A stretch of DNA of 32,000 nt from Candidatus Saccharimonadota bacterium (GTDB lineage Bacteria; Patescibacteriota; Saccharimonadia; Saccharimonadales; Saccharimonadaceae), in NCBI GenBank assembly GCA_023898645.1, contig CP060232.1:840001-872000 (forward strand), read 5' to 3'. Within the stretch, counting starts at the first letter, position 1, and each line of letters begins with the position of its first letter. A model generated the notes under the pieces. The model had not been told where the DNA came from, did no database searches, and saw only the letters and a list, made by a program, of their open reading frames with translations. Position numbers and translations under genes: made by a program. Positions 13,222 through 13,546 of this stretch are shown one piece after another.

Positions 13222-13511
13222 TTAAAAACCAAAAGAGACCAGGTAAGGGTGGGCATCACCTGGCCTCATTTGGCCCTTCAACCCACCCGAATGGGGGATA
13301 CACGAGTGAACGCATATCGAGGCGTGACCCACCTCACAACTTGGAGGTCCGCTGGTTAAAGGGGTTAGTATGCACGCAATGATTGTCAAGTTCCGAGGAA
13401 CTAATTCTGAAAAGTGGAGGGTAGTTACTTTAAAGAAACATTGCATGCAACCTAACATAAGTTAGAATAGGGGGTATAAGGTGCGATTGGATGACCCGAG
13501 GGCCATCAACC
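13222..13511 (-). ncRNA. Unclassified structured RNA of about 290 nt, with its own promoter and intrinsic terminator
   Basis: The region is locally GC-rich with no credible ORF.

Minus-strand helices:
- 13507-13490
- 13465-13452
- long-range pairing of 13449-13439 with 13381-13371, enclosing hairpins at 13431-13411 and 13402-13389
- 13348-13331
- 13318-13297
- 13275-13262
- terminator GGCCAGGU (13265-13258) / ACCUGGUC (13244-13237), followed by UCUUUUGGUUUUU

Four helices have G.U pairs on the minus strand that would be A.C on the plus strand. Confidence 0.65.
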
Positions 13512-13517
13512 ATGTTC

Positions 13518-13546
13518 ATATTAGCACGTATTTGACACAATGTCAA
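13518..13546 (-). promoter_or_regulatory. Near-consensus sigma70 promoter (TTGACA, 17 nt, TAATAT) driving the structured RNA
   Basis: Minus strand: TTGACA at 13546-13541 and TAATAT at 13523-13518. The predicted TSS is about 13511, 3-4 nt before the first hairpin. The -35 is one half of the palindrome TTGACAcaaTGTCAA (13532-13546), which overlaps the dprA ATG. Confidence 0.6.

Follow-up and report, generated by a model that had tools for sequence, protein, structure and literature searches.

A stretch of 32,000 nucleotides (nt) from the genome of a Candidatus Saccharimonadota bacterium (GenBank assembly GCA_023898645.1, contig CP060232.1, positions 840,001 to 872,000 of the forward strand; hereafter the window, numbered from its first letter) contains, upstream of dprA and on the opposite strand, some 290 nt that a preliminary description made from the letters alone proposed to be a structured RNA. 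That description pointed to an alternative fold of the kind found in riboswitches and attenuators, which raises the question of whether the locus encodes a leader controlling the genes downstream of it or an RNA with a function of its own. Judged by comparison with related genomes and with phage contigs, the locus is an RNA gene that is conserved together with its promoter sequence and encodes a covarying two-domain fold with invariant, unpaired C-rich elements. The RNA represents a family that is absent from Rfam and was previously uncatalogued; literature searches returned no description of it.

Homologues were sought in 79 loci from species-representative genomes that were gathered with DprA as anchor (our locus and contig designations, L plus a number, are used where needed). 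A search with nhmmer, which the preliminary description had put forward as a check, located a homologue of the window RNA at the same position, directly upstream of dprA and on the opposite strand, in ~58 Saccharibacteria loci, with E values down to 1e-76. DprA itself is only 52-82% identical across the Saccharibacteria genomes with the RNA. An independent scan of metagenomes with the 19-mer GGTGATGCCCACCCTTACC returned at least 120 contigs; among the matches listed, 118 had a profile match and 63 carried a full-length RNA, and dprA was divergent and adjacent in 48 of the 51 listed full-length copies that had sufficient upstream sequence. The resulting metagenome alignment, being collected by an exact 19-mer, is uninformative on variation in the terminator loop. 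It should be noted that the gene order of this region (dprA, pth, der, topA) is conserved generally among these genomes, also in those without the RNA, and adjacency to dprA is therefore weak evidence of a functional connection.

The structure was derived from an alignment of 54 full-length homologues, in which invariant sequence blocks alternate with helices that vary in sequence and length. As a 291-nt minus-strand RNA, the window sequence folds at -109 kcal/mol compared with -77.2 ± 5.0 for shuffled sequences (z = -6.37), whereas the plus strand reaches only z = -0.85. From the 54 sequences RNAalifold predicted 44 pairs, 26 of them with compensatory changes. In our own model of 57 pairs, 95.6% of the alignment cells form standard pairs, against 38-51% in controls in which the 3' partners were slid by 1-3 columns. 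Changes on both sides were recorded in 34 of the 57 pairs, against 11-16 in the slid controls and 20.2 ± 2.0 after shuffling, and none of 500 shuffles matched the observed values. Many covarying pairs switch between G-C and G-U, the latter corresponding to A-C mismatches on the opposite strand, and this alternation identifies the minus strand as the RNA. The strand assignment of the preliminary description is thus confirmed.

Nine helices were counted in the minus-strand RNA (Table 1), where at least eight had been drawn before, and the four helices for which G.U pairs had been pointed out are P1, P3, P8, and the terminator. P1, an unpaired C-rich stretch of 19 nt (J1/2), P2, and P3 carrying P4 make up the 5' domain. 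The stems of P1 differ between homologues (GUUGAUGG/CCAUCAA versus AUUGGUUG/CAACCAA, among others) and its loop is frequently CUGCGAGA. The C-rich stretch carries ACCUUAUACCCCCUAUU and is predicted to be unpaired in the window RNA as well as in the phage mini-RNAs described below. In P2, two rare compensatory changes were seen and some species have an extra hairpin inserted in the loop; its GUUAG strand could alternatively pair with a second CUAAC at 13368-13364, the end of an invariant and unpaired UACUAAC (13370-13364). Changes on both sides occur in 10 of the 11 pairs of P3. The P4 loop contains CUACCCUCC and is invariant at U.CCCUCC, in which CCUCC is the anti-Shine-Dalgarno core.

P6, three pairs of which have changed on both sides, closes the 3' domain, whose last element is a terminator hairpin displaying UGCCCACCC. 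In other lineages P7 and P8, inside P6, are expanded or have been replaced, in some of them by large insertions. The terminator comprises a lower stem (CCAAA/UUUGG), an upper stem, and a conserved top, GGUGA-UGCCCACCC-UUACC, with the loop at 13255-13247. Twelve of its 17 stem pairs have changed on both sides, 98-100% of the cells are paired, and the loop is invariant in the 54 sequences. The intrinsic terminator of the preliminary description is therefore present and strongly supported by covariation: a hairpin and then a U tract stand at the end of the unit, and termination there is predicted from sequence. A simple terminator scan considers no loop longer than 8 nt and therefore gave no match in the region.

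At the other end, the promoter that had been read as TTGACA, 17 nt, TAATAT lies where it was placed and is kept in 54/54 homologues as TTGAC[A/T/G]-17-(GTG)CTAATAT. In a promoter scan the site scores 10/12 consensus matches plus TG, and two such sites were found in the 1.1-kilobase (kb) region versus 1.8 expected by chance. From the position of the -10 box, transcription is predicted to start at ~13511. Transcription of the RNA would thus begin at a near-consensus sigma-70 promoter, placed back to back with dprA, and would stop at its own intrinsic terminator. The -35 box forms one half of a palindrome, TTGACAcaaTGTCAA (13532-13546), which faces dprA and which, across the 54 homologous loci, is conserved as TTGACAnnnTGTCAA, overlapping the -35 box of the RNA and the start region of dprA. 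It may represent two back-to-back -35 boxes or an operator common to the RNA and dprA, and the tight link to dprA may reflect nothing other than back-to-back promoters that share this palindrome. A further TGTCA half-site, the third in number, lies at 13553-13557.

The opinion that the RNA fits no known family was borne out. No match to Rfam 15 was obtained in the whole window at gathering thresholds; with E up to 10, positions 13100-13700 gave three chance-level matches only (mir-BART14, mir-3622, and gut-2; 14.7-15.9 bits), and nine homologous loci gave nothing consistent. A PyrR-site match over the terminator region (35 bits versus a cut-off of 54) was confined to L027 and was rejected. ARAGORN found neither a tRNA nor a transfer-messenger RNA (tmRNA) in the window. 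The locus had also been called non-coding, and this stands: the 78-amino-acid (aa) open reading frame (ORF) at 13222-13458 exists, has no Pfam match, and is not conserved as a frame in homologues, where the median length of the longest ATG-initiated ORF on the strand of the RNA is ~33 aa and conservation resides in paired helices and invariant loops. Two DNA-level readings, a dif/Xer-like arm (TTATGTTA) and an integron-like GTTAGGT core, were rejected because the G-C/G-U covariation shows selection on RNA. P2 resembles the Cas12a repeat handle in shape only, with no CRISPR array or cas gene present. Possible likenesses to ribosomal RNA (CCCACC in 5S, the complement of GGAGGGUG in the 530 region of 16S, and CCUUACCUGG in 16S) are candidate leads only, the compared loci containing no ribosomal RNA.

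More distant relatives indicate which parts of the RNA persist. In L060, a patescibacterium whose DprA is 40% identical, a weak profile match (E = 0.005) occurs at the same place in the order der-pth-RNA-dprA-topA. Read from the sequence, this locus shares the P4 loop (CUACCCUCCAC), ACUAACCCCUU, and a hairpin with the loop GAUGCCCACCC, while P6 has covaried to CCCUUCAAUU/AAUUGAAGGG. An ACCCCCU, as far as can be read from the letters alone, lies opposite a complementary AGGGGGU beside the U tract, which suggests G-rich pairing of the C-rich motif. L065 and L068, more distant than L060, have a TTGACA-17-TAATAT promoter and then a ~170-nt RNA (z = -4.67) in which a long stem surrounds the hairpin CUUAAA-UCACCCUCC-UUUAAG; the loop UCACCCUCC has one extra C relative to the 16S 3' end, AUCACCUCCUUU. 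Both also have a small additional ORF between the RNA promoter and dprA. Five other patescibacterial dprA loci (L063, L064, L066, L075, and L079) have no recognisable homologue. From its retention in L060 and L065/L068, where helices have changed, the P4 loop with CCCUCC is the most persistent element of the RNA.

Copies of the two halves were found separately in phages. A scan of IMG/VR for the 3' hairpin with the 15-mer GATGCCCACCCTTAC returned 97 loci, 32 of which lack flanking complementarity, as chance would give. In 55 viral loci 6 or more additional contiguous pairs extend the match into a hairpin, and 34 different stems are represented; all 55 have the top GUGA-UGCCCACCC-UUAC, which is mostly fixed by the search pattern, and in many a U tract follows. 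These hairpins lie between co-oriented genes of real phages (examples in Table 1). Several of those in contigs L200-L296 are followed by TTTTTTGATG and a -10-like box, so that the element resembles a terminator coupled to a promoter in front of scaffold, protease, or RecT genes. Since the stems differ at the same position between phages of identical gene arrangement, the element is maintained as an RNA structure and not as a copy of a host attachment site. An attachment site was rejected also on its location between co-oriented genes and on the lack of an integrase among the annotated flanking genes. The host loci, 844 kb in all, contain the hairpin in the RNA gene only, and GenBank phages gave only chance matches to it.

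Scans for the 5' domain with CCTTATACCCCCTATT, and with TATACCCCCT-N(20-50)-CTACCCTCC, identified five phage contigs (L297, L302, L306, L309, and L311) with a mini-RNA of ~110-130 nt that corresponds to this domain. Each comprises a P1-like hairpin, an unpaired ACCUUAUACCCCCUAUU stretch, P2, a P3-like stem around a P4 hairpin with the unpaired loop UCUACCCUCC, and a U tract, each has its own promoter-like sequence and terminator, and their folding z-scores range from -3.7 to -5.7. Each domain is thus able to exist alone in phages. One phage carries both modules separately, since the L311 mini-RNA and the L215 hairpin are different parts of one 40.9-kb contig. The hosts of these phages, judging by the shared RNA modules only, are probably Saccharibacteria. 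In L309 the mini-RNA gene is flanked on one side by a holin-like gene and on the other by one whose product has a lytic-transglycosylase-like sequence motif (recognised by eye; no PHROG match). In three further phage contigs, L299 (5551-5775), L303, and L304, a tRNA-Trp gene is trailed within ~65 nt by a hairpin, then by ACCCCC twice in tandem (ACCUUAAACCCCCUUAUACCCCCUAUUCUAA) and by a terminator, which is probably a further reduced relative of the mini-RNA that is co-transcribed with the tRNA.

These comparative data largely refute the reading of the RNA as a cis-regulatory leader in which a terminator/antiterminator switch governs the small membrane-protein and TerC-like genes, and we find that reading scarcely credible. 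What recommends it is that in the window a gene of the DUF475/TerC family is found on the strand of the RNA and downstream of it, that TerC-family genes are classic targets of the yybP-ykoY riboswitch, and that GGGUGGG (13288-13282) is complementary to CCCACCC (13253-13247) in the terminator loop. This complementarity, proposed in the preliminary description, is real and both segments are conserved. Pairing of at least 5 base pairs is possible in all sequences, but it shows no compensatory change, the departures all break pairs, and the partner is the terminator loop and not a terminator arm. The GGCC/GGCC hairpin that was to form the other part of the switch is specific to the window; in homologues its bases are part of the covarying lower stem of the terminator. 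In phage operons, moreover, the terminator hairpin stands alone with no GGGUGGG partner. The pairing is possibly a tertiary or intermolecular contact, not an antiterminator. The small ORFs and the TerC-like gene do lie downstream on the same strand in the window, as had been reported, but what follows the RNA varies among genomes: DUF475/TerC comes next in only 18 of 59 loci, and in several loci (L024, L027, and L031 among them) the convergent pth ends 9 to ~240 nt from the 3' end of the RNA, which leaves nothing to regulate by read-through. The phage versions of the 5' domain each finish at a terminator of their own and have no gene to regulate, and Rfam gave no riboswitch match, including to the Mn2+-responsive yybP-ykoY, which was rejected also because a TerC-like gene is not consistently downstream. 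Given this variable downstream neighbour, and given that a convergent pth lies directly against the 3' end in several genomes, the RNA more likely acts in trans than as a leader.

How it might do so can be proposed tentatively. The reading that we prefer, with somewhat less than even confidence, is that of a stable and stand-alone, trans-acting, two-domain RNA whose C-rich elements capture G-rich partners. The helices would present the invariant C-rich elements, these would bind G-rich partners, most simply Shine-Dalgarno-like regions of mRNAs, and phages with a one-domain copy would tap the same partner as the host RNA. That the C-rich elements are functional sites is suggested because they are invariant and unpaired, because they are kept in L060 and L065/L068 while helices change, and because the phage mini-RNAs keep P1, the unpaired stretch, P2, and the P4 loop. 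RoxS/RsaE and 6C have been described as C-rich small RNAs that pair with Shine-Dalgarno-like regions. Several observations weigh against such a mechanism. Searches for exact and fuzzy complements and calculations of duplex energies with candidate start regions, covering ~6 kb on each side of the RNA gene, found no target and gave only the gene's own antisense, plus L302. The invariant stretch measures 19-35 nt, including the barely covarying P2 stem, and is far longer than a typical seed; recognition by a protein, or a tertiary fold, would account for it as well as base pairing does, or better. An ornate 287-nt fold with class-wide sequence conservation would be unusual for a base-pairing small RNA, and on a rough look several genes here seem to lack a Shine-Dalgarno sequence. 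Confidence in the mechanism is modest because the stretch exceeds seed length, the P2 stem hardly varies, and no target was found. The match in L302, a single anecdote, lies on the minus strand ~3.3 kb from the mini-RNA, where a 101-aa phage ORF has a G-rich start region (UAGGGGGGUGGGGGUACUAUG) complementary to all three C-rich elements, with duplex energies of -21 to -22 kcal/mol.

The same invariance could be explained by an RNA that binds a protein, as a scaffold or decoy in the manner of 6S, CsrB, Y RNA, or OLE; one or more host proteins would bind the unpaired stretch with P2, the P4 loop, and the terminator loop, and single modules copied by phages would recruit or titrate that protein. 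This is possible, if somewhat doubtful. It accounts well for an invariant stretch of 19-35 nt that includes a P2 stem with hardly any covariation, and for a terminator loop that is fixed together with its top four pairs (GUGA/UUAC) while the remaining stem is free, in the hosts and in the 34 phage hairpins. The hairpin occurs essentially once per host locus, with no second copy in 844 kb, and in phages it precedes highly expressed genes (scaffold, protease, RecT). No candidate protein emerged, however, and only dprA, pth, der, and topA are consistently linked to the RNA, in an order that is conserved also without it. An unlikely but more far-reaching proposal is that the class-wide RNA is a hub of host-phage conflict, its two modules having distinct host partners and having been captured separately by phages, one as a mini-RNA gene and the other as a special terminator hairpin in front of head-morphogenesis and recombination genes, to hijack or disarm these partners; if true, the candidate phyla radiation would harbour a new kind of mimicry at the RNA level. 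A narrower form, in which the host RNA is antitoxin-like, defence-associated, or needed by phages and the phage modules are mimics that neutralise or replace it, is quite improbable. Such mimics have precedents in pseudo-ToxI and RNA anti-CRISPRs, and the domains do occur separately in bona fide phage contigs (with portal, protease, scaffold, RecT, and holin genes), with both modules at different places in the 40.9-kb contig. The host gene, however, occupies a fixed housekeeping site (der-pth-RNA-dprA-topA) and no defence island, no toxin or nuclease gene adjoins it, and the phage hairpins resemble ordinary terminators ahead of promoter-like sequences.

Two further explanations were considered. 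That the RNA is a local device, controlling dprA through the shared divergent promoter region by interference or an operator, with the RNA product minor, would agree with its position beside dprA in nearly every genome and with a -35 box that is half of the conserved palindrome; interference, however, needs no covarying 287-nt structure with invariant loops, phages carry the RNA modules without dprA, and the neighbour order is conserved even in RNA-less genomes, all of which makes this highly improbable. Even less credence is given to a highly divergent universal RNA (tmRNA, RNase P RNA, signal recognition particle (SRP) RNA, or 6S RNA) that standard models miss. Its size, promoter strength, and conservation are those of housekeeping RNAs, and the translation-related pth and der are near. 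The NCBI pipeline reported only 2 noncoding RNAs in a complete Saccharibacterium genome (PMC8830319), which might mean that one universal RNA went undetected there. Yet no model of these RNAs matched the window or the nine homologous loci at E up to 10, and ARAGORN finds no tmRNA. The 5' end forms a local hairpin in 54/54 homologues, not a tRNA-like domain, and the 3' end is a terminator, whereas tmRNA, RNase P RNA, 6S, and 4.5S require the two ends to pair. A putative tag frame beginning at GCA and running through the unpaired stretch has ends that vary between homologues and yields no tag peptide, and a search by eye found no P4 with CR-I/CR-V, no SRP helix-8 loops with a GNRA tetraloop, no rod with a central bubble, and no T-arm.

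The RNA was compared with several described systems. Like RoxS/RsaE of Firmicutes and 6C of Actinobacteria, it stands alone as a gene, with a promoter and an intrinsic terminator of its own, and has several conserved unpaired C-rich motifs in loops and linkers, and the phage mini-RNAs repeat their layout of a 5' hairpin, an unpaired stretch, and a terminator hairpin with a C-rich loop. The host RNA is, however, three times longer, has two domains closed by long-range stems, and has an invariant stretch that greatly exceeds a seed; no Rfam model of RoxS/RsaE or 6C matched it, and the likeness is functional and architectural only. In being ornate and covarying, with many invariant unpaired nucleotides, restriction to one lineage, and an uninformative context, it recalls OLE, the raiA motif, ROOL, GOLLD, and HEARO, none of whose models matched; it is smaller than OLE, ROOL, and GOLLD. 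ROOL and GOLLD are also found in phages, and raiA often lies beside the competence gene comFC, but here phages carry separate domains and not the whole RNA. With riboswitches and attenuators such as yybP-ykoY and the T-box it shares an intrinsic terminator at its end, an upstream G-rich segment complementary to part of the hairpin, and, in the window, TerC downstream; it differs in having no conserved downstream gene, a loop instead of an arm as partner with no covariation, and no Rfam match. Finally, pseudo-ToxI, the solitary repeats that act as RNA anti-CRISPRs, and the Legionella copy of RocR are likewise mobile partial copies of a chromosomal noncoding RNA that keep its recognition elements. 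No toxin, CRISPR array, or known chaperone is linked to the host RNA described here, and mimicry is a candidate explanation only. The plasmid-borne RocR copy of Legionella reportedly also concerns competence genes (PMC6744872).

Saccharibacteria and other bacteria of the candidate phyla radiation have tiny genomes. The RNA is probably important to the cell because it has a near-consensus promoter and invariant unpaired parts even though DprA varies as much as described above. According to a 2022 preprint on the TM7x transcriptome, small RNAs had not yet been validated in that strain (10.1101/2022.03.25.485537). The occurrence of either half as a separate phage module offers a direct route to asking what each half binds. 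Some Saccharibacteria are now genetically tractable (PMC10633639), and deletion, pull-down, and infection studies would be feasible if cultured strains carry the gene.

Table 1. Coordinates of the RNA gene, its parts, the neighbouring genes, and related elements; positions are those of the window unless a contig or locus is named.
Feature	Position	Strand	Remark
RNA gene	13511 to ~13225	-	~287 nt
Promoter	13518..13546	-	-35 TTGACA (13546-13541), 17-nt spacer, TG-c-TAATAT (-10 at 13523-13518)
P1, 5'-terminal hairpin	13485..13511	-	single hairpin in 54/54 homologues
J1/2, unpaired stretch GCACCUUAUACCCCCUAUU	13466..13484	-	nearly all positions identical in 54 sequences
P2, hairpin CUAAC-UUAU-GUUAG	13452..13465	-	98.9% of cells paired
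P3, long-range stem around P4 and P5	13449-13439 with 13381-13371	-	98.6% of cells paired
P4, hairpin with 11-nt loop AACUACCCUCC (13426-13416)	13405..13437	-	stem covaries, 7/9 pairs
P5, small variable hairpin GUUCC..GGAAC	13390..13401	-	missing from many homologues; region length varies
P6, long-range stem closing the 3' domain	CCCUUUAACC 13363-13354 with GGUUGAAGGG 13283-13274	-	99.4% of cells paired
P7	13351-13322	-	variable hairpin inside P6
P8	13318-13297	-	variable hairpin inside P6
GGGUGGG	13282..13288	-	conserved, unpaired; complementary to terminator loop; 2-nt overlap with 3' strand of P6
Intrinsic terminator	13224..13273	-	stem 13273-13229, U tract 13235-13224
Tandem paralogous DUF4185-domain protein genes	6323-7594 and 7747-8874	+	
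der/EngA	8975-10405	+	
pth	10650-11255	+	
DUF475/TerC-family gene	11252-12295	-	
99-aa ORF	12424-12723	-	
47-aa ORF	12960-13103	-	
dprA	13540-14424	+	
Trypsin-like protein gene	14466-15428	+	
topA	16505-18889	+	
Shorter RNA, L065	4525-4745	-	between pth and dprA
Shorter RNA, L068	4560-4790	-	between pth and dprA
Phage hairpin	L275:2630-2674		tail-terminator-like protein, hairpin, head scaffold
Phage hairpin	L207:11994-12033		tail-terminator-like protein, hairpin, head scaffold
Phage hairpin	L234		tail-terminator-like protein, hairpin, head scaffold
Phage hairpin	L242:4075-4109		portal, hairpin, head protease
Phage hairpin	L201:1633-1662 (L201 group)		upstream of RecT-like gene
Mini-RNA	L302:505-640		
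Mini-RNA	L309:4150-4288		
Mini-RNA	L311:1085-1200	-	
Mini-RNA	L306:5805-5925	-	
Mini-RNA	L297:845-965	-	

Among the neighbouring genes, the close relatives of the DprA encoded in the window all come from Saccharibacteria genomes assembled from metagenomes. The true start of dprA is uncertain because neither ATG (13540 or 13567) is preceded by a Shine-Dalgarno sequence and many DprA homologues align from residue 8-10 onward only. The 47-aa ORF, ~120 nt downstream of the RNA, is hydrophobic and is preceded by a good ribosome-binding site, GAGGAG; no counterpart turned up in other loci by tblastn, and it possibly encodes a strain-specific small membrane protein. The 99-aa ORF likewise has no counterpart elsewhere among the compared loci. 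In many loci (L008, L011, L013, L015, and others) a TATAAT- or TACAAT-like box adjoins the start codon of the DUF475/TerC gene, as roughly placed by tblastn, a hint that mRNAs in these genomes may have very short leaders or none.

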